DNA of 40,328 bases from Bacteroidaceae bacterium (GTDB lineage Bacteria; Bacteroidota; Bacteroidia; Bacteroidales; Bacteroidaceae): positions 1-40,328 of the forward strand of contig JAGCTG010000032.1 in NCBI GenBank assembly GCA_017963785.1, given 5' to 3'. The position numbers were made by a program, and so were the translations under genes. Below are positions 1-28,522 of this stretch, piece after piece (position 1 is the first letter of the stretch; every line of letters starts with the position of its first letter). The notes under the pieces are model-generated. The model did not search any database. It worked only from the letters and a program-made list of their open reading frames with translations, and was not told the DNA's origin.

Positions 1-160
1 CATATAACACCTTTTTGTATCGCTGAACCCACACAGACAGTAAACTTGTGCAGGTAAGACCGTACTTGCGAGTAATTTCTGCAACACTCGCATCTGTCTC
101 GCAATACTCGCGAACGATACGCAATCGTTCCTCCATTGAAAAATTAAAACTTCTTTTCAT
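1..160 (-). mobile_element. N-terminal fragment of an IS3-like transposase OrfA (helix-turn-helix), truncated by the window edge
   Basis: Hand translation of the reverse strand from the ATG at 160-158 gives MKRSFNFSMEERLRIVREYCETDASVAEITRKYGLTCTSLLSVWVQRYKKVLY. The ERLRIV...SVAEI..KYG....L..W pattern is typical of IS3/IS911 OrfA HTH proteins. The ORF runs off the left edge. Confidence 0.5.
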
Positions 161-314
161 AATTTATTAACATTTTTATGAAGAGAAAGTGTAAAGGTTT
201 TTCAGTATAAGACATTCGAGCGCGCGAGGCGCACCAGCCTTAATTATGTCTCCGCGCGTACCGAACCTTATTAAATATATTATGTGCAAGCGCGAGTATT
301 ATAATGGCAATAGA

Positions 315-348
315 AAAAGACTGAGGGTAAGGGTGCTCTCAGTCTTTT
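315..348 (-). terminator. Bidirectional rho-independent-type hairpin downstream of the island operon
   Basis: aaaagactgag (315-325) pairs perfectly with ctcagtctttt (338-348) around a 12-nt loop. A/T runs flank both sides, so a U-tract follows the stem on either strand. It lies about 105 nt downstream of the stop at 454. Confidence 0.6.
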
Positions 349-453
349 GGGTATTCTTTTTAGGAAGGGTTATTCTTTGTTGTAGTATAAGGGATATTGC
401 AGCCTGCAAAATGAGCTAGAGGCCGAAATTATAGAACCGGCCAATAAGAACAA

Positions 454-687
454 CTATTCTTCTTGCTCCTTCACTAGCAAATCCCAATACTTATTTGCCT
501 CTTCTTCAGAAGTATAATGCCCAGATTCGTCCCCAGTAAGCTTAACTCTAATACTGTATGTGCCGTCTTGTTTTTCGTGCATTTCGTATCGGTCGTTTTG
601 TTTAACAATACGAAATGATGCTTCAGTGCTGGGGTCTGGAAGTTCTGCACGCAAATTCTTTTTGAAATTGTCAGTGTTGTTTGCCAT
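454..687 (-). CDS. Small acidic cytoplasmic protein (77 aa), no recognisable family; last gene of the island operon
   Basis: ORF track. No signal peptide; acidic C-terminus (SEEEANKYWDLLVKEQEE). Co-directional with, and 74 nt downstream of, the preceding gene. Confidence 0.55.
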   Translation of the reverse strand: MANNTDNFKKNLRAELPDPSTEASFRIVKQNDRYEMHEKQDGTYSIRVKLTGDESGHYTSEEEANKYWDLLVKEQEE

Positions 688-761
688 AATCTTTATTTTA
701 AGTTATCACTATTTATTGTGAACAAAATTTTTCGTATTGAATAAGTATCGGAAGAATCGCG

Positions 762-2483
762 TTACTCGGAGAGGGCGAGGCGGAGACCAAATATGGAGGT
801 AATGTACGTACCTTCACTGACGTGGCGTTTAGAGGTGTGACATTCTGTGGCATAATTTGTCCAGCAGCCACCACGAACGATGCGGCAAACGCCGGATAGG
901 GGACCTGTAGGATTGGTTTGTGCATTAGTACTGTATTTTTCATACCAATCCTGACACCATTCCCATACATTGCCACTCATGTCGTATATTCCTAGTTCAT
1001 TGGGCTGCTTGGCTTTTACAACATGTGTTCCATAATCAGGACTTGATTTTTTCATGCCATATACTGCATTGCCGAAATACCATGCTACAGCGTTTATGTC
1101 GTTACTGCCAGCAAACCTATATCCACGACTCATATTACCGCCACGAGCAGCATACTCCCATTCCGCCTCGGTCGGAAGTCTGAATTGTTGTCCGGTTAGT
1201 TGGTTGAGCTTGCCGATGAACTTCTGGCAGTCCACCTTACTGACTTGTTCTACTGGTCGTTGCATCGAACCGACATTCTTCTTAGGAGCGAACTTAGAGG
1301 GATTCGTACCCATCACAGTCTTCCACAGCTCCTGCGTTACCTCTGTCTCGCCTATATAGAAGCTGCTCAATGTAACACTGTGAACAGGCCCCTCTTCGAT
1401 GTTACCATCCTCGCTGCCCATCTCAAAAGTGCCACCTTCGACAGCAATCATTGTAAAAGAAACACCATTGACGGTAAAAGTTAAATTGTTATCAATTTTA
1501 TTGCTTGTTGTGTTTATATTTATATTGGAAACCCCTGTAGACGATTCAATCATTGCTCCATCCACTTCGACAGTTTGGTCCTCTGCTAAATCTACAACTT
1601 TTGTAAGGTCGGTGTAGCCTGTCTTGCGGATAGTTATATTCCGTCTCCCTACCAGAACCTCTTGTAGGAACATAGGGGTGTCGCCAACTTTCTTTTCGTC
1701 AATGAGAATGTCGGCACCATCGGGTATGACGGAAATATTCAGACTGCCATAAATGGGGATTGGAGCATGAAGTTTTATCTTCTGATCTTCTGATATTGTA
1801 TATACCTCCGACTGCGTTTGATGGCTAGTCTTGCGAGTTTCTATCTGATAGGTGCCGTGCTCCAGAGTGCCAGTCCAACTGCCAAATCCTTTACGTTCTC
1901 CGTTAACCCATATTTCGGCATTGCCGTCCACGTTGAGCGTAACATTGGCCGAGTTGGAGGAGAGTGAGGCTTTAACAGTTGTCGTTTCACCATCTTTTAC
2001 TGTTACCGTTTGCTCAAAAGGCGAGTACAGTGGTTTTACTACGCGTATGCTGTGTTGTCCACTTGCTACCTTTCTAATGGTTAGCGGCACGATACCCTCT
2101 AGTTTGTTGTCAAGGAATACTGATGCTCCAGCTAGCTCTTTTGTTTCGGGAATCTCTATCGCTCCAAATGCAGGACGCATGGTAATGCTGATGACATGTT
2201 TGTTCTGAGGGTCATTAACGGTAATTTTTCCAATTTCGGAGTGATAGCCGTCCATATCCACACGATATTCGTAGGTGCCGAATTTCTTTCGTTTTATGGC
2301 CGTTCCGCCAACCACCTCCAGATTCTCCCCGTCAAGCATTATTATAGGATTTCCGTTGGGCTGAATCTGAAAGACCACATACTGCGATTTGTCATTGCCT
2401 GTCATGTCGTTATGCGCTTTAGACGGCATGGATAAGACAAACACAAATAATCCAAAGATTATATTTGAGAGAAAAAGGCGCAT
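762..2483 (-). CDS. Exported PEGA-repeat protein with one C-terminal FGE-sulfatase (SUMF1/GldK-like) fold domain
   Basis: Signal peptide: MRLFLSNIIFGLFVFVLSMPSKA. PEGA motif: SVIPDGADILIDEKKVGDTPMFLQEVLVGRRNITIRKTGY. FGE-fold motifs, about aa 335-572 (nt 765-1481): GGTFEMGS, FYIGETEVTQELW, RLPTEAEWEYAARGG, NELGIYDMSGNVWEWCQDWY, RGGCW, FGLRLAL. Confidence 0.85.
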   Translation of the reverse strand: MRLFLSNIIFGLFVFVLSMPSKAHNDMTGNDKSQYVVFQIQPNGNPIIMLDGENLEVVGGTAIKRKKFGTYEYRVDMDGYHSEIGKITVNDPQNKHVISITMRPAFGAIEIPETKELAGASVFLDNKLEGIVPLTIRKVASGQHSIRVVKPLYSPFEQTVTVKDGETTTVKASLSSNSANVTLNVDGNAEIWVNGERKGFGSWTGTLEHGTYQIETRKTSHQTQSEVYTISEDQKIKLHAPIPIYGSLNISVIPDGADILIDEKKVGDTPMFLQEVLVGRRNITIRKTGYTDLTKVVDLAEDQTVEVDGAMIESSTGVSNININTTSNKIDNNLTFTVNGVSFTMIAVEGGTFEMGSEDGNIEEGPVHSVTLSSFYIGETEVTQELWKTVMGTNPSKFAPKKNVGSMQRPVEQVSKVDCQKFIGKLNQLTGQQFRLPTEAEWEYAARGGNMSRGYRFAGSNDINAVAWYFGNAVYGMKKSSPDYGTHVVKAKQPNELGIYDMSGNVWEWCQDWYEKYSTNAQTNPTGPLSGVCRIVRGGCWTNYATECHTSKRHVSEGTYITSIFGLRLALSE

Positions 2484-2528
2484 ATTGTTGAATCTAGAAA
2501 AAAGTTTTTACAGAAGGAGCTTTATAAC

Positions 2529-3272
2529 TCATTCCAATTTAATGTATTCTTTTATTATAGGAATAAGTGCATCTGATGCCTCTGATGTAAACCGGGGAGA
2601 TTGGCAAAAGAACACAAAGTCGAAACTTGTAGGAGTTTGCCAGGACGAATAGTCTTCAACATGGTAAGGTATTTCTGGTTCTATCCAGTTTACCTTTTTG
2701 ACTAAATCGGGATAACGTATAAAATCATCTATTACTATTCCATCCTTAACCGTCGGAATCTGCAGCATTTCTCCGTTTTCGTTAAAATCTTTATGAAACA
2801 TGGGCGTTCTTGTTGAAATATGCCATCTTTTACTTTTGTCGGTAATAAAAAATACGCTATTTAGCTTTTGATATGCAAGCAACATACCTACCACATTTCC
2901 TTCTGACATATGGTCTTTAATAACGGTAATTCGTTCTTCAACCGGACAGGACATAAGGTTTATAATATTGCATACAAAACATTTTTTACCAGATGCACTT
3001 GGATGTAAATCATCATGTGCATCAACATGATATAAATTGATGTTATCAAATCCTTTTTCCACTATGACATTGAACAATTGGTCATGCGTTTTTGCACAAC
3101 AACCGATAATAGGGTTGGTTTTATTCAGTCCACATTTTTTCTCTAAGAAACTACGTACATCACGTTCTGCCCACGGCCAGAAGTCGTCGTCAGATAGTCT
3201 TTGCTTGTTGCCGTCATAGTCATAATAAACATCATTTTGGAAGAAATCTAAATCGAGGTCTAAAATGTTCAT
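2529..3272 (-). CDS. Cytoplasmic UPF0489-like protein (arginase/deacetylase-superfamily-like metal-site motif)
   Basis: No signal peptide. N-terminal MNILDLDLDFF and a later LYHVDAHDDLH resemble the UPF0489 family, which is thought to be related to arginases (DAHxD-type motif). Assigned from motifs only. Confidence 0.4.
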   Translation of the reverse strand: MNILDLDLDFFQNDVYYDYDGNKQRLSDDDFWPWAERDVRSFLEKKCGLNKTNPIIGCCAKTHDQLFNVIVEKGFDNINLYHVDAHDDLHPSASGKKCFVCNIINLMSCPVEERITVIKDHMSEGNVVGMLLAYQKLNSVFFITDKSKRWHISTRTPMFHKDFNENGEMLQIPTVKDGIVIDDFIRYPDLVKKVNWIEPEIPYHVEDYSSWQTPTSFDFVFFCQSPRFTSEASDALIPIIKEYIKLE

Positions 3273-3341
3273 ATGTTACTAATGTATCTTATGGGTTATT
3301 TGATGAGACCTGCTGATGCGGATGCACGGTGAAAGCAGTGT

Positions 3342-6176
3342 TTAATATGCTTTTTTTGAGAGTGCTAGACGGAATCCAAGTGTGCCGCCTTTAGGTATAT
3401 CTTTTTTTGAAGAAACCACAAAACAATCATACAAGTTAGAGTCATACGCACCGCCACGACATGCTCCATTTTCGCACATCTCCCATACATTGCCACTCAT
3501 GTCGTATATTCCTAGTTCATTGGCCTTTTTAGACGCTACTCTATGAGTCTCTCTGTCTTCCATTACATTTACATACCCACCCCCGGCGCGATTTGAATGA
3601 TAGCGTTTCATCACGCCACTATTGCTATAAAACCAAGCAACTTCATCAACACTGTTACTTCCGCTATGCATATAGCCTTGGGTTTTGTTTCCGCCTCGAG
3701 CAGCAAATTCCCATTCTTCTTCTGTTAAAAGACGGAATGATGCTCCTGTAATCTTGTTCAGTTTGGTGATGAATTCCCGGCAATCATTCCAACTAATACT
3801 TTCTACTGGAAGATAATAGACTCCCTGATTCAGACTCGAATCACGTTTGCTTCCCATAACTGCATCCCATAATTCTTGAGTAACTTCTGTTTCACCAACA
3901 AAGAAATCATTAACTTTTACCAGTTGTACGGAGCGAATCGTGTCCTCATTTTTCTTTTTCTTTTCTTTTTGCTCTGGCATCGCGCCCATTAAGAACTCTC
4001 CGCCTTCTACTGGTTTCATTTTAAAATATACATTGTTGGTAAAATAAGTGTCCTTTACTAAATAAGTGCAATCTTCTAAAGGGTCTTCTGGCATTGACAT
4101 AGCAAGACGTAATCCTAAATCAGGAACTTTTATATCGACATCGCAGCCTGACGACCCAAAAGGCTGACCTTCGTCTAGCGCAACTGGGCCTGTATTATTA
4201 TATGCCCCACCACGTCTAGAGGCAATGTATTTAGAGATTTGGAAATCAATGTTATAGCCTTTATCATACCAATTAAGGCACCATTCCCATACATTGCCAC
4301 TCATATCATATATACCTAACTCATTGGGGTATTTCGTGGCAACTGGTTGTGGTTTATGTGAAGAGTTCCAGCTAACCCAACATACAGAGTCTGGATAATT
4401 ACTACCACTACATTTATAGCCATGTGTTTTCTTTCCGCCGCGGGCAGCGTACTCCCACTCTGTTTCCGTAGGAAAACGAAATTTTCTCCCTGTAATTCGA
4501 TTTAACATGTAAATAAATTTTATGCAATCATTCCATGAAACAGAATGAACCGGCAAATTGTCTCCTGTGAATTTGCTGGGATTAGTGTCCATCACCGCTT
4601 TCCACAGGGCTTGTGTTACTTCGGTTTGCCCGATACAGAAACTTTTAACTGCAATATCTTCTTTTAGGTATCCACCTTCCACTTCAATCATTTTGAATGT
4701 AACGCCATTAACAGAAAACACATCCTCTAATTTTTGCAGAAAATTGAATGTGTTTGTTTTATCGGCAGTTACGTTGATTGTCTTCTCCAAATCTTTGTAT
4801 CCATTTGCCGTAATACGGATGGCGTGCTCTCCATAGCCAAGGTCATAAGTGGACGCTATCTTTCCTTTACTCTCTCCATCTATAAAGATAGTGGCATTGG
4901 GATTGTTACACTCAAATGTAACAGTCGTGCTTTGTGCAAGGGAACCTGACACCTCTACGGTCTGACCTTCTGTTAACTCCACTCTCCGCGTTAAGTCTCC
5001 ATAACCTGATTTGTGGACTGTAACAGTATGTGTTCCTATCAATACGTTGCTGAGAGTAAGCGGTGTTTCGCCTCTCTTCTCTCCATCTACAAAGACTTCG
5101 GCCATGGCGGGGAGCGTGCTGACTTCAAGACTGCCAAAAATTGGCGTAGGGGCTGGCAGCGAAATAACCACCTGCTCTTTGCTGACAGATAAGGACTTGT
5201 TGACATGTGAAGGACGGTGATTCTCGGCCTTCGTCTCAAATTCATATTCCCCTGTGCTTAGATTGCCACTCCAGCTGCCTTTGCCTTTCATTTCGCCATT
5301 AACCCATATTTCTGCATTATTGTCTACTGTAAGTTTTACATTGGCGAAATTAGCACTCAGTTCGGGAGATAATTCTGCCGTCTTATTATCTTCGATGGTT
5401 ATTTGTTGCTGCCAATTGCCATATAGGGACTTTACTATCCTGACGGTATGGGTGCCACTGGCCAGCTGGCCTGATTTGCATGGCACGGTGCCTATCTGCT
5501 TGTTGTCAATAAAGACGGTACCTCCGCGGTTGGACTCATTAGCCTTAATCTCTACCCATCCAAAGGCAGGAAGTAGCTTTACATCTACTACCACCTTGTT
5601 AGTAGGGTCACTCACGCTAACCTTACCCGAAGAAGAGTGGTAGTCCTTGGCTTGCACTGAATAAGTATAGTCGCCAAAAGGCACAAACTTGCGTGCAGAT
5701 CCTCCATTGTTGTTCCATATCTCGCCCTCGACCTCCACGATGGCATCTGCAGGTGTTACGTTAAACACGAGGTACTGTGACGTCTGCAGCTTCTTCGTGC
5801 CTTGTTTGGGTAATTCAGGAGCTGTTAATTTAACTCTATATACACACTTTCCTTCAATAGGAACAGTAAAGACTATTTCTCCAGGCAAATAATCTGCATG
5901 ACGGAAAGAAATCTTTTTAGTTCCTGCGGGTACATATACTTGATACTCGCCTGGCTTGTAGCCTGCTTTGCCTACGACCCATCCCTCGAACTGCATGCCT
6001 TGTACGGATGGCAGTACGACACGAATAAGAGCACACGGATTGCCATTAGCATCCAATCGAGGATTGGTGCGAGCGGCAAGATCGTTTTCCAAAAACTCAG
6101 TCTCTGACACCGCAATCTCTTGGCTATAAGCAAAGAGAGAGAGAAATAAAAATATTACAGAAAGTATTTTTCGCAT
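3342..6176 (-). CDS. Large exported protein with multiple PEGA-like repeats and two tandem FGE-sulfatase-fold domains
   Basis: Signal peptide: MRKILSVIFLFLSLFAYSQE. PEGA motif: STLPAMAEVFVDGEKRGETPLTLSNVLIGTHTVTVHKSGY. FGE-fold domain 1, about aa 487-694 (nt 4095-4718): FPTETEWEYAARGG, NELGIYDMSGNVWEWC. Domain 2, about aa 714-940 (nt 3357-4037): GGEFLMG, LLTEEEWEFAARGG, NELGIYDMSGNVWEMC. The module order parallels the 573-aa paralog. Confidence 0.85.
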   Translation of the reverse strand: MRKILSVIFLFLSLFAYSQEIAVSETEFLENDLAARTNPRLDANGNPCALIRVVLPSVQGMQFEGWVVGKAGYKPGEYQVYVPAGTKKISFRHADYLPGEIVFTVPIEGKCVYRVKLTAPELPKQGTKKLQTSQYLVFNVTPADAIVEVEGEIWNNNGGSARKFVPFGDYTYSVQAKDYHSSSGKVSVSDPTNKVVVDVKLLPAFGWVEIKANESNRGGTVFIDNKQIGTVPCKSGQLASGTHTVRIVKSLYGNWQQQITIEDNKTAELSPELSANFANVKLTVDNNAEIWVNGEMKGKGSWSGNLSTGEYEFETKAENHRPSHVNKSLSVSKEQVVISLPAPTPIFGSLEVSTLPAMAEVFVDGEKRGETPLTLSNVLIGTHTVTVHKSGYGDLTRRVELTEGQTVEVSGSLAQSTTVTFECNNPNATIFIDGESKGKIASTYDLGYGEHAIRITANGYKDLEKTINVTADKTNTFNFLQKLEDVFSVNGVTFKMIEVEGGYLKEDIAVKSFCIGQTEVTQALWKAVMDTNPSKFTGDNLPVHSVSWNDCIKFIYMLNRITGRKFRFPTETEWEYAARGGKKTHGYKCSGSNYPDSVCWVSWNSSHKPQPVATKYPNELGIYDMSGNVWEWCLNWYDKGYNIDFQISKYIASRRGGAYNNTGPVALDEGQPFGSSGCDVDIKVPDLGLRLAMSMPEDPLEDCTYLVKDTYFTNNVYFKMKPVEGGEFLMGAMPEQKEKKKKNEDTIRSVQLVKVNDFFVGETEVTQELWDAVMGSKRDSSLNQGVYYLPVESISWNDCREFITKLNKITGASFRLLTEEEWEFAARGGNKTQGYMHSGSNSVDEVAWFYSNSGVMKRYHSNRAGGGYVNVMEDRETHRVASKKANELGIYDMSGNVWEMCENGACRGGAYDSNLYDCFVVSSKKDIPKGGTLGFRLALSKKAY

Positions 6177-6191
6177 TAAAATACAAAGTCA

Positions 6192-7229
6192 TTAAATGTC
6201 AAAATCGCTTAGACTGAATATCTCGTCTTTGGGTATGCGTTGCGTTCCCTTACCATTAGAGTTATAGGCATCGGGCTGCCATGTACGCACATGTATCTGA
6301 GGATGCTCTTCGTCGCGGAAGTCCCATAAGAGGAAGACATAGCCGTCATCATGATAACGATCAGAAGTGTAGCCTTGATGAAGGGTCACTCCGTAAAAGT
6401 CTTTGTTGACAGGATGACGCATCACTTCAATCTCATCAAAGGTGACGCGAATCATCCTATTATTGGCAAAGACACGCTTGAGGTTAGTCAGGTACTCCTG
6501 CTTACTTTGTTTTTTATACACGATTTTGTCCGGTAGACGTATGCCATCGCCCGTTTTACGTTGAATCACTCTACCCGTGATAATGAGGGCATCGTCGCTG
6601 AACACTGCCTCGAGGAAATCAATGTCTTTTTGATTGTAGGATGTACGAAATTGCTCTACATAATCAAGTATAAGCTGACGACGACGCAGGTCGGTAATTT
6701 CCTTGTTATCACGGATGACATTCATGTAGAGGTTCATACTGATAGACAGGTAGAATGAAACAAGATTACCTTGTTTGTCGAAGCTAACAACTGCCTCCTG
6801 ATAATCTTCATCTTCTGCAATGTCGGAAGGATTAGTCGGCTTGAGCAATATCGGAATATTCCTAACTTGGTAACCGGTGCCGGTAGTCAGACAATGCTCA
6901 ACTATCTCAGTATCCATACTTACAAACGGAGAGTTTTCCCAGAGAGACGCAAGTGCACCTTGCACTGAAGAAGGAATGCCGAGAGCAGAATAGTTCATCT
7001 GTCGCTTTCCTTCATAGGCAGCATTTGCTTCAGTAAGGATAGTGGCAATAGTCTGCTCCATCTTTGTCTTGATTGCAACATTGTCAATGCCATCAGTCAG
7101 TTGTACTGTCACTCTATCTGCAGCTTTGACTGCAAATGATAGCATCATCATTGAGATGCTTAATAATGAAAGTTTGAGATATTTCATAGTTGTATGTTTA
7201 ATCTTTTGTCTTAATCCATATTGCTCCAC
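6192..7229 (-). CDS. Exported hypothetical protein; C-terminal half possibly NTF2/SnoaL-like
   Basis: ORF track. The start is more likely the internal ATG at 7187 (MKYLKLSLLSISMMMLSFAVKA is a signal peptide), which removes the 32-nt overlap with the upstream gene. The C-terminal DIDFLEAVFSDDALIITGR...VTFDEIEV...YGVTLHQ pattern weakly resembles NTF2-like folds. Confidence 0.6.
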   Translation of the reverse strand: MEQYGLRQKIKHTTMKYLKLSLLSISMMMLSFAVKAADRVTVQLTDGIDNVAIKTKMEQTIATILTEANAAYEGKRQMNYSALGIPSSVQGALASLWENSPFVSMDTEIVEHCLTTGTGYQVRNIPILLKPTNPSDIAEDEDYQEAVVSFDKQGNLVSFYLSISMNLYMNVIRDNKEITDLRRRQLILDYVEQFRTSYNQKDIDFLEAVFSDDALIITGRVIQRKTGDGIRLPDKIVYKKQSKQEYLTNLKRVFANNRMIRVTFDEIEVMRHPVNKDFYGVTLHQGYTSDRYHDDGYVFLLWDFRDEEHPQIHVRTWQPDAYNSNGKGTQRIPKDEIFSLSDFDI

Positions 7230-7992
7230 ATCCCTTGTAGTTGCTTATCAAATCGGGGGTGCCAGTCTTCAGGTTGATACAGGTTTCGCCTGCGACTTTC
7301 AAGCAGGCTGGTATTTCGCCTTGCTTATTGTGAATGAACACATACACAGCATCTGTTGTCGGCAGATTGGAATACTTACCAACCTGCGTGATTGTCCCGT
7401 TTTTTCTACCTAGGTTGACATATTCGTTTAGTGCCGTAAATGTCTCAACAGCCAACATCTCTTGTTCTTTTTGCGTCGGAGTATAGGCTGTAGAAATTAT
7501 ATCCTGTTTTTCCGTTTCCTCAACACTCTCATTCATAGGTGTTGTCACTATTTCATTAGAGGCAGTAGTGTCAGCGCTGGCTACAGGAATAGCATTAATT
7601 GCTACCGAGTCCGTGGTTTGCCCTGGTTGTCCAAAGTTAACGACCATCACTTCTTCTTGCTTATAATACGGGAGGATGTCGATCTTGTTTACATACGCGA
7701 AAACACGATAAAGCCTGCCGCGCTGCGTGCTTATCTGCGACAAAGACTCCTTAGACTTGGCTACATATCCTGCTATACTATCAACAGAGCACTCTTTTAG
7801 CCATTGTTCTATCTCTAACGCCAAAAGGTCTTTGGCATTGTTGGAGGCCTCTTCACTACTGACAGAGGATGTGCCAGTAGCATAGATAAAACTGATATTG
7901 CGCTTAATGTCATTGATTTGCTGTTGCTCATTCTGGGCAAAAGCAAATCCTACGCAAGTCATAAAGACTAAAGTCAAAAAATACCGAATCAT
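7198..7992 (-). CDS. Exported hypothetical protein (264 aa), no recognisable family
   Basis: Signal peptide: MIRYFLTLVFMTCVGFAFAQ. The start overlaps the upstream stop as ATGA (7989-7992), suggesting translational coupling. Confidence 0.6.
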   Translation of the reverse strand: MIRYFLTLVFMTCVGFAFAQNEQQQINDIKRNISFIYATGTSSVSSEEASNNAKDLLALEIEQWLKECSVDSIAGYVAKSKESLSQISTQRGRLYRVFAYVNKIDILPYYKQEEVMVVNFGQPGQTTDSVAINAIPVASADTTASNEIVTTPMNESVEETEKQDIISTAYTPTQKEQEMLAVETFTALNEYVNLGRKNGTITQVGKYSNLPTTDAVYVFIHNKQGEIPACLKVAGETCINLKTGTPDLISNYKGCGAIWIKTKD

Positions 7993-8972
7993 ATCTTCTT
8001 CTTTGGTTTTTTTATGTATTGTTGATACAAGTCTTTAACATTGTGTGTCGGGATATAGGCATTAAGTGTTGCCTTGAAAACTGAACGGGGATTAGAAACG
8101 AAGTTATCAGGGATTATGATGGAGAGCATATGATTGAATCCTAGGTCTTTACTCTGAGCTATCAGCAAAGCCTTTAGCCCGTCTTCACGCTCTTCTTCTA
8201 TGGCAAAATACACCTTCAGTTTCATCGCCTGACAATATGCTAACCACTGCCATAGCGGTATGCTATATTGCTTTTTGGCTAAGCCATAAAGATTCTGCTC
8301 GATATATAGAGTATAGCCTGCAATACAAGTACTGTCAAGACAACTCTGGAAGAGATTGGCAGCAGAACGCCACTTATCACTATCGTCAAAGATGGGCAAC
8401 AGACTATCAGTTTGCGACAGCCGATAGTATGTCGCATCATTAAAAGACTCTACGTAAAGGTATTGTACATTCTGATTCGTATAAATACTGTCGGGCTGTT
8501 CGTGCAAGTATTGTCTGTCAACAAGATAACAGTTGTACAGAGAAGATTCCGCAAGTGTAGTATTAAAGGTTTTTTCTATATCTACCTTGGGCTGCCCAAG
8601 CAGTAACTCGTACTGCATAGGAAAGGCAAGGTCAAGAACAACATTACCAAGAGTGTCAGACCATGAAACTTCATAGAACTTGTCCTCTGTCTTACTGATA
8701 GTAAATGTCATCTCCTGAGTTATATGTGTAGCAGAAGAAGCATTGCCTGTCACAAACAGAACTTTATCGTCACGTAGGCGTTGGTCGACAGCAATATGTT
8801 TCTTCTGGAGGCTATCAATCTCGAAAAGATACCTCTCTAGGAAATCATAGACAACAGAAGGGTATGCAGTTTTCATTTCCGGAGGAAACAGGACAAACTT
8901 CTGTGCCGAACAGATCTGTACAGCCAACGCCACACACAACAATAAGGACAATGCGATCTTCTTGCTCATCAA
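7989..8972 (-). CDS. Exported hypothetical protein (327 aa), no recognisable family
   Basis: Signal peptide: MMSKKIALSLLLCVALAVQICSAQ. Lies 33 nt downstream of the MORN gene on the same strand. Confidence 0.6.
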   Translation of the reverse strand: MMSKKIALSLLLCVALAVQICSAQKFVLFPPEMKTAYPSVVYDFLERYLFEIDSLQKKHIAVDQRLRDDKVLFVTGNASSATHITQEMTFTISKTEDKFYEVSWSDTLGNVVLDLAFPMQYELLLGQPKVDIEKTFNTTLAESSLYNCYLVDRQYLHEQPDSIYTNQNVQYLYVESFNDATYYRLSQTDSLLPIFDDSDKWRSAANLFQSCLDSTCIAGYTLYIEQNLYGLAKKQYSIPLWQWLAYCQAMKLKVYFAIEEEREDGLKALLIAQSKDLGFNHMLSIIIPDNFVSNPRSVFKATLNAYIPTHNVKDLYQQYIKKPKKKI

Positions 8973-9005
8973 ATATATTATATATAGATAAGGTATAGTC
9001 GCGTA

Positions 9006-9722
9006 CTACTTGGAATCGTAGCTACTTTCAGAACCTACGCCAAAGTTGAGGCTTTCCAATAGGTTTCCTGCAGAGTCATAATGTTTGCCATATACCACAA
9101 ATCCATTATAGAACTCGCCTATTACATAATCACCCGCATCAGCTGTACGTCCCTTCATGTCGTTACGATTAATCTGACGTGTAGTGGTATAGGTGAGCCG
9201 GCCTTGACCATGAGGATAGCCATCCTTAATTGCTCCGCTGTATTTACCGTAACTCAAACGTAGCGTCCCATTGCTCTGCGCAGGTGCTGGTGAAGGTACA
9301 GGAGCAGGTGCTGCATTCTTTACTATTACCTTAGTACGAGTATCCTTAATGGTATCGTGCACTACCACAGTATCTTTTTTCGCAGGAGTATCTGCTGCTT
9401 CTTTAATTAAGGTGCTGTCAACAGTAGTAGTATCAGAAGCTACCGCAAGTTCCTTCTTATCGGAAGAGCCGCTAAAAAGTTTTGTGCAGAGTAAGACAAT
9501 TGCTGCAACAGCCAGCAATGCGATAATTGTCCACAGTATTTTTTTGTTTCCTTTCTTGGGAGGAGGACATTTGCGCAACTCTTTTCCGCACTCGGAGCAA
9601 ACAAAGTCTCTTCGCATTGAGACTTGCTGCACTTCCTTGGTTTTACACTTTGGGCACTCATCATTCAGACAAATGCCGTATTGCATACGATTGCTGTCAG
9701 ACGGTCTAATATTTCTTGGCAT
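9006..9722 (-). CDS. Bitopic membrane protein: N-terminal zinc ribbon, one TM helix, Thr/Pro/Ala-rich linker, C-terminal MORN repeats
   Basis: CPKC...CSEC forms two CxxC pairs at aa 23-46. TM helix: ILWTIIALLAVAAIVLLCTKLF. MORN-like units: YSGAIKDGYPHGQGRLTY and YVIGEFYNGFVVYGKHYD. Confidence 0.7.
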   Translation of the reverse strand: MPRNIRPSDSNRMQYGICLNDECPKCKTKEVQQVSMRRDFVCSECGKELRKCPPPKKGNKKILWTIIALLAVAAIVLLCTKLFSGSSDKKELAVASDTTTVDSTLIKEAADTPAKKDTVVVHDTIKDTRTKVIVKNAAPAPVPSPAPAQSNGTLRLSYGKYSGAIKDGYPHGQGRLTYTTTRQINRNDMKGRTADAGDYVIGEFYNGFVVYGKHYDSAGNLLESLNFGVGSESSYDSK

Positions 9723-9758
9723 CTTTGTATTATTTTTCTATTTGACTAATATATTTTC

Positions 9759-12700
9759 TTACATTGAAGGAGGCATTGGCGGGGGCATGCTACCAGGTGT
9801 TGGAGGTGCTGGTGGTGTAACCGTAGGAGCAAACAGCCCCTGCAACTCAACAACTTGTGCTGCAGCAGTCCATGAAGCCATGCCCTGTTGCCACACCATA
9901 GTCTGTGGGGTTAACTGACCATTTGCCACAAACTGACGTAGTGTCGCGTAGTCATATGGTCCATATTGCTGGCCTCCAATATATAAAAACATTTGCACCT
10001 GCGGTTCTGCAGTTGGCATTGGCGGAGGCGTTGCTATTGTCGTCGTTTCTTTTATCTGTTGCTTTGATGGCGGAGGTGTTGCAGTCGTTGTCGTTTCTAC
10101 GCTCTTATTTGCTGCTTTGTCAACTACAAAAATACTTGGCAAGTCTTTTCCATCACCTTCTGTATGAAGAAGAATTGCATTTGTCACATCAGTTGCTCTG
10201 TTCCCTGTATGCAGGAAGTCCTCATACTTCTTCTTATATCCCTGCAGCCAATCTGCACATCGCATCGGGAAACAATAAGCTACCGTAATAATGGACAATT
10301 CATTGTCGCGCGGACTCTGAGTGTTAAATACTATATCGGTAATAGCTGTTCCCTGAGTAAAACTGCTCTTAAATGCTCTTTCTAGTTTTTCTGCAAATGC
10401 TTTCTGACTGTCGGTAGCAGGTTTAGGAATAGACACAAGCGTCACCTTCTTATTGATGCTAGCAGGATTAGACGGAGCCAATGGGCCTTCGTTGTTGCGA
10501 ACGTGAAGCTGTATCTGGTCATTGTTGAGCTTGAGGAACACCCCACTCTGCTGTGTAATCTTATATGCAAAGCTACGTATCTCTTCTTCTGTACTGAACT
10601 TCTGCTGAAGTTGGGTGAGGATATTCAATCCGAGTACTTTCTTATCAGCATCCGCCTGTTCATTATGCTTGGTGCGCACAATCTCACTGAGTTTTATGTC
10701 GAAAGCATCTCGAATCTGATCGATACTTATATCGGAAGCCAAACGTCCAAAATTAACGAACTCAGTTTGTGGCAAAATAGCAGTCCTTAACTGACTAGCG
10801 ATAGTGGGCATATCTGTCTTATCAAGTTTAAGCTCAACCTCAAAGGTCTGCATTGTTTCCTCTTCACTGACCTCAATGATTGGGCCTTTCATGTCTTCAA
10901 GGCCTTTGTTGACTTTCTTCTGCGCTGCAATAAGTTTTTCCGTTTCTTCAATAGCGGTGCTTATTACCTGACCAAAGGCACTAATGTCAATGTCCATATT
11001 TTGCAACTCGTTAAGGATCTTCGTTGCAAGTGATTTCGCAAATTGTAGGGCAACCATTCGAGTGCGCTCTGTATAGAAGTCGGCAAGATCGTTCTGGTGG
11101 CGACTATATATACGCTTTCCTACATTTGCGATACGCTTAATCAAGCTAAGATTGCTCCATTCTATAACATTATCTTTGCAATCCTGTTGTATAGCCGTTA
11201 CTGTTTCTGCATTCTTAATAATGGCATCGTCAATATGAGTGCGAATTTCTGTTATCTTCTCAAGAAGGAGAGCAGAAACCTTCTGGAGTTCCACAATAGA
11301 GATATCGCCGTCTTTCCATTTTTCAAAAAGCTCACGCTCTATAATTCCACGTATTTCTTTGGCCATATCGGGAATCGAATGTGATTTATCACGATAGAAC
11401 GCTTCAACTCCTACTCCACGGAATTGCTTTGCAAAATATTCCTCATTAAGAATAGCATCAAGTTCATTCAGTGGACATGCATCTTTGTTAAACGAAGGAT
11501 CATTAAGAGGATAACTTACTGCCTTATCGTGCCAATACTCTGAAAATGCAGGATGCTTCTTATCACTCTTCAGAATACGAGTATCGAGTGTAAGATGACG
11601 TTCGTCAAGCATCCAACGTTCCATGTTATTATCGTTGAGGTATGCCTCGCGATAATCTTTCTTGGCTTCTTCGTCAACATAACCCACTTCGTCACGCCAG
11701 TTATTATATTTGAATTGTAGTAGAACACTTTCACCTACAGTGTAAGTGATGTGTCGAAGAACGCGCAACTCTGGATACATAACACGCTTTACTCCGAAAG
11801 AATTAACCTTCTTAGTACGAGCCACAAGCTTTTGTGCGTTATCAATAATTGTATCATCGCCAAGTTCGTCATACTCCAAGGCGAAATCATCCATATTCTC
11901 ATAGGTGTAAGCGCGAATAATATCTGCATTCACCTGATCTTCAGAATTAATAAGGAAAGTCCTAGCATATACAAAATCACTAACGACCTTGGGTAATTCT
12001 TCGAAAGAATTCAAAGAATGGCCATTATCATTAACGTTGCTATATAGTGTTATACCATTGGCGACACCCTTTACACGGTCACTGAATACCTTTATCTCTG
12101 CTCCGTTTCCTGTTACATCGTGAGGATTAAAACGCCCTGCCTGTAGAGCATTTAGTTCACGAAGAGCAGCATAGCCGTTTTGATAGTAGCGCCCTTGATC
12201 CATATTAGCCTTGGGAAGATTCTGCTCTGGCATCATGGCGTATACACTAATTATTGCATCGGGATACAATTTGCGAGCTTGTACGATAGCATCGATTATG
12301 CTTCCGGAACCAGTACCACCGCAAAGCCCAGCAAAGATATGAATGTTCAAATCGCTGCCACCTTCCTTACCGGAAATCTTGATTATCCTAGCATAAGCAT
12401 TGCGCAAGGCATTAACATAGCCCACAGCATTAGCAGCAAACAAAAGACGACCAGCACGGCGCTTCTGCCCTGCTGCCTCACCTAAGTTGCCGATAGCAGT
12501 CTTAACAGCTCCTGCGTCTTTGATGATTCCTTTCACGCTAGGATAGTTATTGATATGGTCAAGCATATGACCAATATCTGTACTCTTTATATACAGGAAT
12601 TCGTCTTCCGTAAACGAGGCATCCTGACCCATAACGCGAAAATCTGGTCTTGGACGTCCGTCTTTTGGCATCATCTCTCGAGTAGAGTCGATGTATAAAA

Positions 12701-12842
12701 GAGCTACTGGTTGTTTGTTTCTGTCAGAAGACTCAGGAAATTCCTCAAACATTCGCATCTTGAACTCACGGAGGATCTTACCTCCAGTACCACCTAAACC
12801 AACAAGAATGTGATTTTGGCTACAAAAAGTCTTTGCCATCAT
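9759..12842 (-). CDS. Giant tubulin/FtsZ-superfamily GTPase (Tubulin_2 / FtsZ-like type) with proline-rich linkers and a C-terminal GYF_2 domain
   Basis: N-terminal glycine loop: ILVGLGGTGGK (aa 12-22). Tubulin signature: GGTGSG at aa 175-180 (nt 12303-12320, checked codon by codon). GEAAGQKRRAGRLLF precedes it. The C-terminal MFLYIGGQQYGPYDYATLRQFVANGQLTPQTMVWQQGMASWTAAAQVVELQGLF (aa 951-1004, nt 9831-9992) matches the GYF_2 consensus. That domain is flanked by ATPPP/PPMP tracts. Confidence 0.8.
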   Translation of the reverse strand: MMAKTFCSQNHILVGLGGTGGKILREFKMRMFEEFPESSDRNKQPVALLYIDSTREMMPKDGRPRPDFRVMGQDASFTEDEFLYIKSTDIGHMLDHINNYPSVKGIIKDAGAVKTAIGNLGEAAGQKRRAGRLLFAANAVGYVNALRNAYARIIKISGKEGGSDLNIHIFAGLCGGTGSGSIIDAIVQARKLYPDAIISVYAMMPEQNLPKANMDQGRYYQNGYAALRELNALQAGRFNPHDVTGNGAEIKVFSDRVKGVANGITLYSNVNDNGHSLNSFEELPKVVSDFVYARTFLINSEDQVNADIIRAYTYENMDDFALEYDELGDDTIIDNAQKLVARTKKVNSFGVKRVMYPELRVLRHITYTVGESVLLQFKYNNWRDEVGYVDEEAKKDYREAYLNDNNMERWMLDERHLTLDTRILKSDKKHPAFSEYWHDKAVSYPLNDPSFNKDACPLNELDAILNEEYFAKQFRGVGVEAFYRDKSHSIPDMAKEIRGIIERELFEKWKDGDISIVELQKVSALLLEKITEIRTHIDDAIIKNAETVTAIQQDCKDNVIEWSNLSLIKRIANVGKRIYSRHQNDLADFYTERTRMVALQFAKSLATKILNELQNMDIDISAFGQVISTAIEETEKLIAAQKKVNKGLEDMKGPIIEVSEEETMQTFEVELKLDKTDMPTIASQLRTAILPQTEFVNFGRLASDISIDQIRDAFDIKLSEIVRTKHNEQADADKKVLGLNILTQLQQKFSTEEEIRSFAYKITQQSGVFLKLNNDQIQLHVRNNEGPLAPSNPASINKKVTLVSIPKPATDSQKAFAEKLERAFKSSFTQGTAITDIVFNTQSPRDNELSIITVAYCFPMRCADWLQGYKKKYEDFLHTGNRATDVTNAILLHTEGDGKDLPSIFVVDKAANKSVETTTTATPPPSKQQIKETTTIATPPPMPTAEPQVQMFLYIGGQQYGPYDYATLRQFVANGQLTPQTMVWQQGMASWTAAAQVVELQGLFAPTVTPPAPPTPGSMPPPMPPSM

Positions 12843-12866
12843 ATTATAGTTATAAAATTATTGTAT

Positions 12867-12874
12867 CAAAGGTA
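12867..12874 (-). promoter_or_regulatory. Candidate Bacteroidetes -7 box (TACCTTTG) proximal to the tubulin-like gene
   Basis: The reverse complement of caaaggta matches TAnnTTTG and ends about 25 nt upstream of the ATG at 12842. The nearest TTTG (12901-12904) is 26 nt away, longer than the usual spacing of about 19-21 nt. Confidence 0.3.
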
Positions 12875-12957
12875 GTTAACAAATCATTCCCGCAATCCCC
12901 CAAACGAGTGTTGGTATTAGTGTGCACGAAAAAAGCGTAGGGATTTGTCCTTACTCA

Positions 12958-13126
12958 TCTTATTGCGGGTATCGCCAAACACCTTGTCAGAAATGAGTAT
13001 AACTTATCACCTACGCCGTATGCTCGAGCTACGGCGTAAGTGAAGCCGCATGCAACGTTGACATACATGCAAGGCGAACCGTATTCTATATCCTTCTGAC
13101 TTGAAATTGGCGATTTCGCAATAAAG
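12958..13126. repeat. Imperfect long inverted repeat (structured element) of about 170 nt in the mfd/island spacer
   Basis: Hand-paired helices are nested in order: 12960-12967 with 13117-13124 (8 bp), 12971-12978 with 13107-13114 (8 bp), 12986-12992 with 13094-13100 (7 bp), and 12995-13001 with 13087-13093 (6 of 7). An inner hairpin pairs 13007-13020 with 13030-13043 (9+4 bp, one mismatch; loop tgctcgagc). Confidence 0.55.
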
Positions 13127-13178
13127 GATAAAGCGCGGAACGCTTCTTCGGTCTCGGGATTTTTCCCCCAAGACGGTG

Positions 13179-13209
13179 CAAATATAATAAGAATTATTAT
13201 AATAGCAAG
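13179..13209 (-). promoter_or_regulatory. Candidate distal promoter for the island operon (-7 TATATTTG, -33-like CTTG)
   Basis: The reverse complement of caaatata (13179-13186) is TATATTTG, matching TAnnTTTG. CTTG (13206-13209) lies 19 nt upstream, which is canonical spacing. Use of this promoter would give a leader of about 330 nt containing the inverted-repeat element. Confidence 0.35.
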
Positions 13210-27880: not shown

Positions 27881-27888
27881 CTGTGGCG

Positions 27889-28289
27889 GGTGGACCAGGG
27901 GAGATTCGAACTCCCGTCCAAACAAGGAAGCCATGTGTTTTCTACATGCTTAGTCAGGCTGTGATTGTCTGTCCTGCAGCCGGAGCCCGACGGCCAACAG
28001 CGGGGCATATCCTCTGAAGAATTTCGCCCGAGGCGCGAGGCCGCCTCAAGCTATCCCCGATTTGCTGCGCCACTGAACCGGTACGCTTCGGAGAAAGAGC
28101 GACCGAGTGACGTCTCGTTCTGCGCCCTTGGCGCGGAATAAAGCAGTCCTACTGTACTTCAGACTAAGCTGCGAGAGCGTAGTTAGTTTCGCCAGATAAA
28201 TTTGTGAGTAGTTGCTTTTTAAGTGACTGCTACCAACGCACTGCATGCTTGCACACCTCTTGACCTCGCTGTCAAATCCAGTCTGGCCC
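27889..28289 (-). ncRNA. ssrA: tmRNA (SsrA), about 401 nt; tag GETNYALAA
   Basis: The 5' GGGCCAG pairs with the 3' CUGGUCC, including the G3:U identity pair. T-arm: GGGAGUUCGAAUCUCCC. The 5' region GACUGGAUUUGACAGCG resembles tmRNA consensus. Tag ORF: GGC GAA ACT AAC TAC GCT CTC GCA GCT TAG at 28164-28193. Confidence 0.92.
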
Positions 28290-28297
28290 AGGTATAT

Positions 28298-28325
28298 GTT
28301 CGAAAGTTCGAAGGTTCGAAAGTTA
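28298..28325. repeat. Octamer tract gttcgaaa gttcgaag gttcgaaa (gttaaccc) just upstream of ssrA
   Basis: Counted by hand. Lies between the GC hairpin (28327-28344) and the tmRNA 5' end. Confidence 0.7.
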
Positions 28326-28326
28326 A

Positions 28327-28344
28327 CCCCCCTTTGCAGGGGGG
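28327..28344 (-). other. GC hairpin (cccccc tttgca gggggg) between tRNA-Glu and ssrA
   Basis: Perfect 6-bp G:C stem with a 6-nt loop. Function is unclear; it could be a processing or termination element. Confidence 0.4.
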
Positions 28345-28353
28345 CTTTTGAGG

Positions 28354-28428
28354 TGGTAGCGCCTACGGGACTCGAACCCGTGTACCCGGCGTGAGAGGCC
28401 GGTATCCTAACCACTAGATGAAAGCGCC
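28354..28428 (-). tRNA. tRNA-Glu (anticodon CUC), CCA encoded
   Basis: Hand-folded cloverleaf: acceptor GGCGCUU/AGGCGCU (G1:U72 and U6:G67 wobbles), D-loop UAGUGGUUAG, anticodon stem CCGGC/GCCGG with loop CUCUCAC, T-arm ACGGG-UUCGAGU-CCCGU. Confidence 0.75.
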
Positions 28429-28435
28429 AAGGTTG

Positions 28436-28522
28436 CGGAAGCTAGGAGATTCGAACTCCTGGTACGGTTACCCGCACGGCAGTTTAGCAAACTGCTGGTT
28501 TAAGCCACTCACCCAAACTTCC
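28436..28522 (-). tRNA. tRNA-Ser (anticodon GCU) with long variable arm, CCA not encoded
   Basis: Acceptor GGAAGUU/AGCUUCC, anticodon stem GCAGU/ACUGC with loop UUGCUAA, long variable arm CGUGCGGGUAACCGUAC, T-loop GGAGUUCGAAUCUCC. Confidence 0.85.

Follow-up and report, generated by a model that had tools for sequence, protein, structure and literature searches.

A candidate membrane-proximal system of the FtsZl1 (Tubulin_2) family with replaceable exported cargo in Bacteroidales

The FtsZl1 branch of the tubulin/FtsZ superfamily, which corresponds to the Pfam family Tubulin_2, and its operons were described by comparative genomics and proposed to act in membrane remodelling (Makarova & Koonin 2010, Biol Direct 5:33, PMC2875224). 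The family has remained functionally uncharacterised since then (PMC2875224, PMC9871819), as was also stated in a preliminary description of the DNA analyzed here, which was made from the sequence alone. This DNA, referred to below as the window, is the whole stretch of 40,328 nucleotides of contig JAGCTG010000032.1 (assembly GCA_017963785.1, Bacteroidaceae bacterium). Nine open reading frames (ORFs), g1 to g9, run head to tail on its minus strand between positions 454 and 12842, beginning with the genes for a 1027-aa tubulin/FtsZ-like protein (g1) and a zinc-ribbon membrane protein (g2). Whereas the preliminary description treated all nine genes as one unit, we find that the conserved unit is (g0)-g1-g2-g3-g4-g5 in fixed order, where g0 is a gene that the window lacks, and that the genes located 3' of g5 vary by locus and mostly encode a signal peptide followed by a common N-terminal domain, g6N. 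The best reading of the cluster is a Bacteroidales-specific variant of the FtsZl1 (Tubulin_2) systems, which are membrane-proximal and probably serve in conflict.

The cluster shares with the FtsZl1 family, as originally described, a divergent tubulin/FtsZ domain followed by a long helical C-terminal extension, and the encoding of this protein, additional to the normal FtsZ, together with membrane-associated and exported proteins. Unlike in the described FtsZl1 operons, however, Pfam and NCBIfam searches found none of the vWA, Ser/Thr kinase, novel P-loop GTPase and OmpA-like partners in g2-g9. The sole true Bacteroides example in the 2010 paper, from B. caccae, also differs from the present cluster in that its neighbours are a 535-aa protein and a cysteine protease, and that paper contains no description of the GYF fusion, the zinc ribbon (ZnR)-transmembrane (TM)-MORN protein, g3-g5, g0 or the g6N cargo.

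Kaur, Burroughs, Iyer and Aravind (2020, eLife 9:e52696, PMC7159879) reinterpreted neighbourhoods of related tubulin genes as membrane-proximal conflict systems, to which they assigned similar parts, namely tubulin, ZnR, PEGA, NTF2, Sel1, FGS and GYF. Among these, the GAP1-N2 systems resemble the window cluster in a tubulin with a helical extension, in ZnR-TM proteins with extracytoplasmic PEGA, NTF2 or beta-sandwich domains, in the presence of FGS, Sel1 and GYF domains, and in variable linked genes and a predicted membrane-proximal conflict role. They differ in being defined by GAP1, DO-type GTPases with N-terminal ZnRs, and FNIII-repeat and vWA components. In the operon, P-loop, vWA and FNIII found no match, and none of the nine proteins contains a Walker A motif; GAP1, for which there is no public profile, lay outside the search. 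Furthermore, the variable parts of the present cluster are separate exported proteins with a common N-terminal domain, and the GAP1-N2 tubulin theme was reported for Firmicutes and Actinobacteria only, whereas the present host belongs to Bacteroidales.

In the Myxococcus gliding machine Agl-Glt, the protein GltJ (Attia et al. 2024, Sci Adv 10:eadn2789) combines a cytoplasmic zinc ribbon, a GYF domain and a TM anchor, the same kinds of parts as in the present cluster, and these couple a GTPase and a cytoskeleton to a trans-envelope complex. GltJ, however, carries both the ZnR and the GYF on a single membrane protein; in the present cluster, g2 has the former and g1 the latter. The GTPase and the cytoskeleton of that machine are the Ras-like MglA and MreB, respectively. 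The NCBIfam GltJ profile matched g1 with 26.4 bits, far under the cut-off of 450, across the GYF domain and the Pro-rich part only, and g1 is therefore not a GltJ member. A looser likeness exists to MreB-RodZ and FtsZ-ZipA/FtsA, in which a filament-family NTPase is tied to periplasmic partners via a small single-pass protein; there is no sequence relationship, and those systems are indispensable to the cell and pass vertically with the chromosome, unlike the present accessory and mobile cluster with its variable cargo. All nine proteins were run against PADLOC, NCBIfam and Pfam, which returned only domain-level matches and no known system, and literature searches on tubulin/GYF/PEGA or tubulin-based defence systems led to nothing beyond GltJ and the two comparative studies of 2010 and 2020. 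Thus, we found no described system with this gene set in these databases or in the literature, in line with the preliminary description, which knew of none.

The conserved core

We compared about 40 related loci, obtained by a genome scan, look-ups of contigs encoding homologues and a metagenome scan, with the ORFs of each locus compared by tblastn and iterative hidden Markov model searches. The order g1-g2-g3-g4-g5 was kept in all 22 of the genome and metagenome loci with enough flanking sequence, at g1 identities of 46-85%, and likewise in loci L028-L030 and L036-L044, so that the neighbourhood recurs in every related locus in which it can be read. The hosts of these loci are Prevotella, Alloprevotella, Paludibacter, Muribaculum and Bacteroidaceae metagenome-assembled genomes (MAGs); by name, all members found through cluster look-ups are hypothetical proteins. 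The expectation that the partners of the tubulin-like gene would accompany it elsewhere held for the ZnR-TM-MORN gene, which is found directly after g1 in all loci examined, but not for the other proposed partners: the PEGA/FGE genes are one of many cargo types and the UPF0489-like gene, g7, occurs in no other locus. One locus, L008 (JAMPGZ010000026.1), is labelled as a Lachnospiraceae MAG; it is probably mis-binned because the locus and its flanks are essentially those of the Muribaculum loci L009 and L012.

The first gene of the core in the window, g1 (9759..12842, minus strand), encodes a clear member of the FtsZl1/Tubulin_2 family by profile match and a putative cytoplasmic GTPase. The Pfam Tubulin_2 profile (PF13809) is matched over positions 1-354 of 356 with 171 bits, well above the cut-off of 27 (E 5.8e-50), and a GYF_2 domain is found at residues 952-1000 (E 1e-17). 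These matches bear out the original assignment of g1 as a tubulin-superfamily protein with GYF_2. The order of its parts is the tubulin domain (~10-373), a conserved helical region (~400-650), an alpha/beta region, a Pro-rich linker, GYF_2 and a Pro-rich tail. In 32 g1 homologues, conservation spans the whole length of the protein, and both the T1-like GLGGTGGK (15-22) and the T4 signature GLCGGTGSGS (172-181) are invariant. D242, located after an H7-like helix (216-234), is also invariant; its assignment as the T7 element is uncertain. In the AlphaFold2 (AF2) model, which has a predicted local distance difference test score (pLDDT) of 65, the tubulin-like domain comprises residues 10-300, and the helical region (400-650) is modelled very confidently, with pLDDT ~90 for the helices at 457-649, two of which are very long. 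The top and significant fold matches of this model in the PDB, aligned over ~300-340 columns, are all CetZ, TubZ, tubulin or FtsZ. The family is large, with at least 1507 g1 homologues at E<=1e-5, and the Tubulin_2+GYF_2 architecture is common to nearly all of the best 120 of them. In locus L014, a second copy of g1 (10169-11905; 578 aa) lies ~2.5 kb 3' of a complete system; in this copy the helical middle is deleted and the tubulin domain is fused straight to the C-terminal part with GYF.

The second core gene, g2 (9006..9722, minus strand), encodes a 238-aa protein in which a 4-Cys zinc ribbon is followed by a juxtamembrane CPPPKK, a single TM segment at residues 62-80 preceded by a basic stretch, a variable low-complexity linker and a MORN-like domain. 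From the hydropathy pattern, the zinc ribbon is predicted to be cytoplasmic and the MORN-like domain periplasmic, which fits the earlier description of g2 as a bitopic zinc-ribbon/MORN protein. The zinc-ribbon and MORN matches to Pfam are weak and under the cut-off (E ~1e-3), but C18, C23, C42 and C45 and the G/Y pattern of the MORN-like domain are invariant in an alignment of 16 orthologues. The CPPP[KR] motif immediately before the TM segment is conserved, and its presence in g2 tracks that of the GYF domain in g1: the three g1 proteins without GYF (L005, L013 and L028) are all paired with a g2 without the PPP motif (3/3), and GYF-bearing g1 is paired with PPP-bearing g2 in 17 of 21 cases. 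Binding of a Pro-rich partner by a bacterial GYF domain within a trans-envelope machine has been demonstrated experimentally for GltJ-AglZ (PMC11135422).

A distant relative of g1 occurs on a Paraburkholderia chromid (L027; NZ_CP155075.1, 7527-14426), in a stretch that carries no annotation in its record. There, the gene for a full-length homologue, which shares 27% identity with g1 over 86% of the g1 length, precedes those for a ZnR-TM-TPR-like protein and for a lipoprotein with a similar C-terminal domain; ~1 kb upstream, another lipoprotein appears caspase-like by eye (SSHG ... DTCYSG). Given this ZnR-TM neighbour, the g1/ZnR-TM pairing reaches beyond Bacteroidales.

The remaining three core genes encode exported proteins that profile-profile comparison shows to be unrelated to each other, and paralogy among them was accordingly rejected. 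The first of these, g3 (7989..8972, minus strand; 326-327 aa), has no family match and 386 homologues, none of them annotated. Its AF2 model has a pLDDT of 87, and a fold search of the PDB and viral structures returned nothing significant, the best match being an NTF2-like one at E 0.06. The second, g4 (7198..7992, minus strand; 264 aa), consists of two small conserved parts with a variable low-complexity linker between them; it is present in nearly all loci that are complete through g5 and was missed only by the tblastn pass, in three Muribaculum-type loci. The final gene of the core, g5 (6192..7187, minus strand; 331 aa from the ATG), encodes the most conserved of the exported core proteins, with 46 invariant alignment columns and a C-terminal NTF2-like domain (Pfam Cds6_C, E 2.5e-6). 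PDB profile searches gave no match for g3, g4 or g5, nor for g7 or g6N, two elements of the variable region.

Directly 5' of g1, at a distance of ~20 nt, 23 loci carry g0, whose product of ~200 aa spans the membrane three times and ends in a basic Arg/Ser-rich tail. The window and its closest relative, L020, whose g1 is 85% identical, both lack g0, and a g0 remnant 5' of the window g1 was sought and ruled out. In the place where other loci carry g0, these two loci alone have a non-coding leader, which in the window occupies, together with its promoter, positions 12843..13190 of the minus strand. This ~340-nt structured stretch contains no ORF and has no Rfam match. It is 85% identical to L020 2146-2484, compared to ~72% for the neighbouring coding DNA, folds strongly (minimum free energy -108 kcal/mol, z -5.3) and contains a short hairpin with a T-run at 13146-13130. 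The leader may act as an attenuator or encode a small RNA.

Replaceable cargo downstream of g5

The boundary between the core and the variable region is sharp. The window and L020 are homologous at the DNA level from 13186 up to the g5 stop codon; the homology ends exactly there and resumes only in fragments of an FGE gene and in g9. The cargo has therefore been exchanged at a fixed breakpoint. In the window, the gene following g5 is g6 (3342..6176, minus strand), which encodes a 944-aa exported protein with three PEGA and two FGE/FGS domains in the Pfam annotation, located behind the signal peptide and g6N. The latter is a domain of ~105 aa at the N-terminus, spanning g6 residues ~19-128 (window 5793-6122), and g6 is the only g6N cargo in the window. 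It has no match in Pfam or the PDB and is a previously undescribed, putative docking-type domain.

The g6N domain is widespread and is joined to very different partners. A HMMER search of 1.84 billion representatives identified 1893 clusters (50% identity) at E<=1e-3, in which g6N almost always lies at residues ~20-125, directly after the signal peptide. Among the loci, which contain 1-4 g6N cargo genes each, the fusion partners are PEGA, PEGA+FGE, WG_beta_rep, Sel1/TPR, Bflower_2 (beta-flower) and unknown regions. The Pfam domains in 98 g6N proteins are PEGA (41), Sel1 (20), WG (11) and FGE (9), as well as TPR and LRR, with single cases of caspase, TonB_C, an outer-membrane protein barrel and CHU_C. 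The linkage of g6N genes to the core is tight: a metagenome search by g6N alone yielded 14 loci, and the core was found immediately upstream in 11 of the 11 with usable upstream DNA, the other three contigs being too short for upstream reading.

The second PEGA/FGE protein, g8 (762..2483, minus strand; 573 aa), is an exported paralogue of g6 without g6N and contains two PEGA domains and one FGE domain; together, g6 and g8 match the earlier description of two paralogous PEGA/FGE proteins. The catalytic pair of formylglycine-generating enzymes (FGEs) is formed by two cysteines after an RGGS motif. In g8, GGCWTNYATEC corresponds to GGSYLCHDSYC of the FGE 6muj, so that the first Cys of the pair is replaced by Asn, as in TvpA, and g8 falls outside the catalytic FGEs. 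The best PDB match of the g8 FGE domain is the Treponema variable protein TvpA (2y3c, E 8e-37), compared to 1e-20 for true FGEs and 2e-12 for PorK. The FGE domains of the cluster are thus predicted to be TvpA-like ligand-binding modules. The similarity to TvpA and other FGS binders diversified by diversity-generating retroelements (DGRs) lies in this fold, the missing first catalytic Cys and the use of exported variable binders; the difference is that diversity here arises by swapping of whole cargo genes rather than by mutagenic retrohoming. A DGR acting on the FGE domains was considered and rejected, the window containing neither a reverse transcriptase-like ORF nor a template repeat/variable repeat pair. 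A separate observation concerns a stretch of 40-46 nt encoding the ELGIYDMSGNVWEW motif, in which the FGE domains of g8 (961-1006) and g6 (3481-3520) share 98-100% identity, far above the similarity elsewhere in the paralogues; this identity may have arisen by gene conversion.

The same comparisons bear on the structural analogy to GldJ and GldK that had been proposed for the FGE-fold proteins. The likeness is that GldJ, GldK and PorK are likewise exported proteins of Bacteroidota with the FGE-sulfatase fold. Unlike those proteins, however, g6 and g8 have no lipobox Cys at the signal-peptide cleavage site, and thus no lipoprotein signal, and GldL, GldM and GldN are not among the neighbours. 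The NCBIfam GldK profile gave 96 and 103 bits against a cut-off of 350, and GldJ gave 41 and 55 bits against 458. Given these scores and the much closer TvpA, the analogy is weak.

The two other genes of the variable region, g7 and g9, are probably passengers. The 247-aa, apparently cytoplasmic product of g7 (2529..3272, minus strand) has no Pfam UPF0489 match even at E<=1; by tblastn it is UPF0489-like, aligning with 27% identity and 97% coverage (E 6e-15 to 9e-17) to genes on plasmids that bear a UPF0489 annotation and adjoin recombinases, Fic and Tn3. It forms a singleton cluster, and g7 is probably an accessory gene in its own right that sits within the variable region. The 77-aa acidic protein (pI 4.9) encoded by g9 (454..687, minus strand), which had been counted as a part of the system, is found elsewhere only in L020.

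Genomic setting and mobility

The layout of the operon conforms to the preliminary description. The intergenic gaps from g1 to g9 are 36, 36, -4, 10, 15, 69, 45 and 74 nt, calculated with ATG starts for g3 (8969) and g5 (7187, where the mechanical ORF start is a GTG at 7229), and the -4 gap is an ATGA at 7992-7989 at which the g4 start overlaps the g3 stop. The promoter-like upstream region contains a Bacteroidetes-type -7 box, TATATTTG, at 13190-13183, which is also kept in L020. At the other end, 105 nt beyond g9, a hairpin at 315..348 with a 15-bp palindrome between A and T runs is the likely bidirectional terminator closing the operon. Simple hydropathy also agrees with the compartments assigned before, with three cytoplasmic products (no hydrophobic segment in g1, g7 and g9), one bitopic product and five exported ones (signal-peptide-like N-termini in g3, g4, g5, g6 and g8).

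The GC content shifts sharply, from ~42% in window positions 1-13186 to ~54% in 13187-40328, which places the border of a low-GC island at about 13186. The island is flanked upstream by mfd, secG, lptE and dnaB, and at its other end by the start of an IS3-type transposase OrfA gene (2..160, minus strand; HTH_Tnp_1, E 1.7e-6) that is truncated by the window edge. Given the GC shift together with the flanking mfd and IS3-type transposase, the cluster is a horizontally acquired island. Elsewhere, an integrase gene accompanies the core: a tyrosine integrase of the same family is encoded directly 5' of g0 in L029 (4256-5452), L037 (1170-2378), L038 and L041, which suggests that the system travels on an integrative element. 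A phage- or plasmid-borne system was also considered and rejected, all such matches being remote. Further along the window, a tmRNA gene (tag GETNYALAA) lies beside tRNA-Glu(CTC) and tRNA-Ser(GCT) at 27888-28522 on the minus strand; these are housekeeping genes unrelated to the cluster.

Several loci contain genes of the kinds found in defence systems, which lends some support to the conflict role that had been listed among the original possibilities. In L029 (766-19509), the gene order is SIR2, integrase, the system, PDC-S31 and a long prokaryotic Argonaute. A TIR protein is encoded in L011 (18-896), an AbiH-like gene lies between two cargo genes in L030 (15041-15850), a RES-domain gene lies between g5 and the cargo in L023 (16599-17504), and L020 contains a RelE gene. 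The association with defence genes is suggestive rather than established.

Candidate functions of the system

Taking into account the synteny, the common cargo domain and the island character of the cluster, the best-supported reading, which we consider plausible rather than probable, is a mobile two-compartment module for conflict or envelope surveillance, in which a conserved core is combined with plug-in periplasmic binders. Its purpose most likely lies in conflict or envelope surveillance rather than in housekeeping, and its target may be phage or interbacterial toxins. The contacts between the proteins, their nucleotide-driven assembly and the role in the cell that we infer would be as follows. 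The exported proteins g3, g4 and g5, together with the MORN-like domain of g2, would make up a platform in the periplasm, seated on the inner membrane, on which the cargo would dock via g6N, the cargo proteins serving as interchangeable receptors for agents that enter or damage the envelope; candidate ligands are parts of phages, toxins that act in the periplasm, and fragments of peptidoglycan or glycans. The signal would be relayed across the membrane by g2, whose zinc ribbon and juxtamembrane CPPP may recruit g1 through its GYF domain. The output would be a nucleotide-dependent self-assembly of g1 at the membrane, with possible self-cross-linking through its Pro-rich tails and GYF, and in most loci g1 might act jointly with the three-TM, basic-tailed g0. 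The more specific proposal, that of a surveillance machine common in gut Bacteroidales in which g6N-docked receptors and a zinc-ribbon relay trigger tubulin-superfamily assembly as an immune output, we regard as unlikely, if worth stating.

A number of observations weigh against the conflict and surveillance interpretation. One clade of loci (L001, L003-L005, L011, L013 and L014) carries after g5 a conserved pair of exported proteins of ~520 aa and ~245 aa, with weak coiled-coil- or TPR-like and Gly-zipper-like matches, respectively, and no g6N cargo; a hidden g6N in the ~520-aa proteins was sought and rejected, none being detectable. The core encodes no recognisable toxin, nuclease or other effector, and PADLOC-DB 2.0 contains no family matching any of the nine proteins at E<=0.001. 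If g0 is the effector, the window copy may be incomplete because g0 is missing here. With respect to the setting, ~6 of the 124 flanking proteins are of the defence type according to PADLOC, a raw count given without a background rate, and many loci sit among ordinary housekeeping genes. Periplasmic sensing would, moreover, be unusual for a phage defence. At the level of the proteins, the AF2 model of g1 is of moderate confidence (pLDDT 65), with residues 298-365 disordered, and the T6-H7 elements were not identifiable in FtsZl1 in the 2010 analysis (PMC2875224). The protein-protein contacts are all ones that we infer, and the co-variation of GYF and PPP, which reflects about two or three independent losses, is suggestive.

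Some of these observations can be turned into an argument for a different role. In an envelope-architecture module, a tubulin-like scaffold would position a periplasmic, peptidoglycan-associated assembly through g2, much as in MreB-RodZ or FtsZ-ZipA, and would help to remodel the wall or membrane locally, to form vesicles or to make the envelope more robust. The combination of a cytoskeletal-family protein, a bitopic adaptor and periplasmic proteins fits such a module, as do the view of PEGA and Sel1 as peptidoglycan-associating domains (PMC7159879), the lack of a toxin-like effector in the core and of PADLOC matches, the position of several loci among housekeeping genes and the membrane remodelling originally proposed for FtsZl1 (PMC2875224). 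However, the cluster is island-like, linked to integrases and patchily distributed; the cargo is swapped rapidly at a fixed breakpoint, with several divergent cargo paralogues per locus; the modules found in the cargo (TvpA-like FGS, LRR, Sel1 and WG repeats) resemble receptors rather than wall-synthesis enzymes; and defence genes are interleaved with the cargo. We regard an architectural role as the main, though rather unlikely, alternative to conflict or surveillance. The constant position of g6N after the signal peptide of very diverse passengers, some of which contain surface or host-interaction domains (BspA-type LRR, BACON, WG repeats and, as a faint match, Lcl_C), and the tight linkage of g6N genes to the core would also be compatible with a sorting, anchoring or display system, in which proteins tagged with g6N, such as adhesins or glycan binders used in colonisation, would be retained, assembled or exported by the core, perhaps powered or gated by the GTPase. 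This is quite improbable given that no outer-membrane protein, secretin, ATPase or channel was found in the core, that the signal peptides are ordinary type I ones, with no lipobox or type IX secretion system (T9SS) C-terminal domain except for the one protein of 98 with CHU_C, and that a cytoplasmic GTPase could not drive periplasmic export directly.

The least probable of the interpretations considered, and one largely contradicted by the synteny, is that of the preliminary description itself, namely one envelope-spanning machine built from all nine genes, with the PEGA/FGE proteins as fixed structural analogues of GldJ, GldK and PorK and the UPF0489-like and 77-aa proteins as integral parts. 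The nine genes are indeed co-directional, with short gaps and one shared terminator, and FGE-fold proteins are known to be structural in T9SS and gliding, with PorK structures in the PDB. Nevertheless, g6-g9 are not conserved with the core, g7 being unique and g9 confined to the closest relative, and PEGA/FGE is just one of many cargo types; the scores for GldK and GldJ are far under the family cut-offs and the FGE domain is much nearer to TvpA than to PorK. No outer-membrane component was found that would support an envelope-spanning arrangement.

With regard to significance, FtsZl1 is the most divergent branch of tubulin/FtsZ, defined in 2010 and still without an experimental function, and the present analysis offers a testable system in abundant gut bacteria, with five or six fixed partners and a predicted GYF-CPPP contact. 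In addition, g6N is the hallmark of a large and polymorphic group of binding proteins in the periplasm. If the structural interpretation were true, the cluster would be a mobile cytoskeleton-guided envelope module. Under the conflict interpretation, it would represent a mechanistically new Bacteroidales defence, combining periplasmic sensing with a cytoskeletal output, and would have a bearing on phage-host and interbacterial dynamics in the gut. Should the system prove to be a surveillance machine of the kind outlined above, this would be the first function assigned to the FtsZl1 branch and the first bacterial tubulin-based immune effector or signal transducer.

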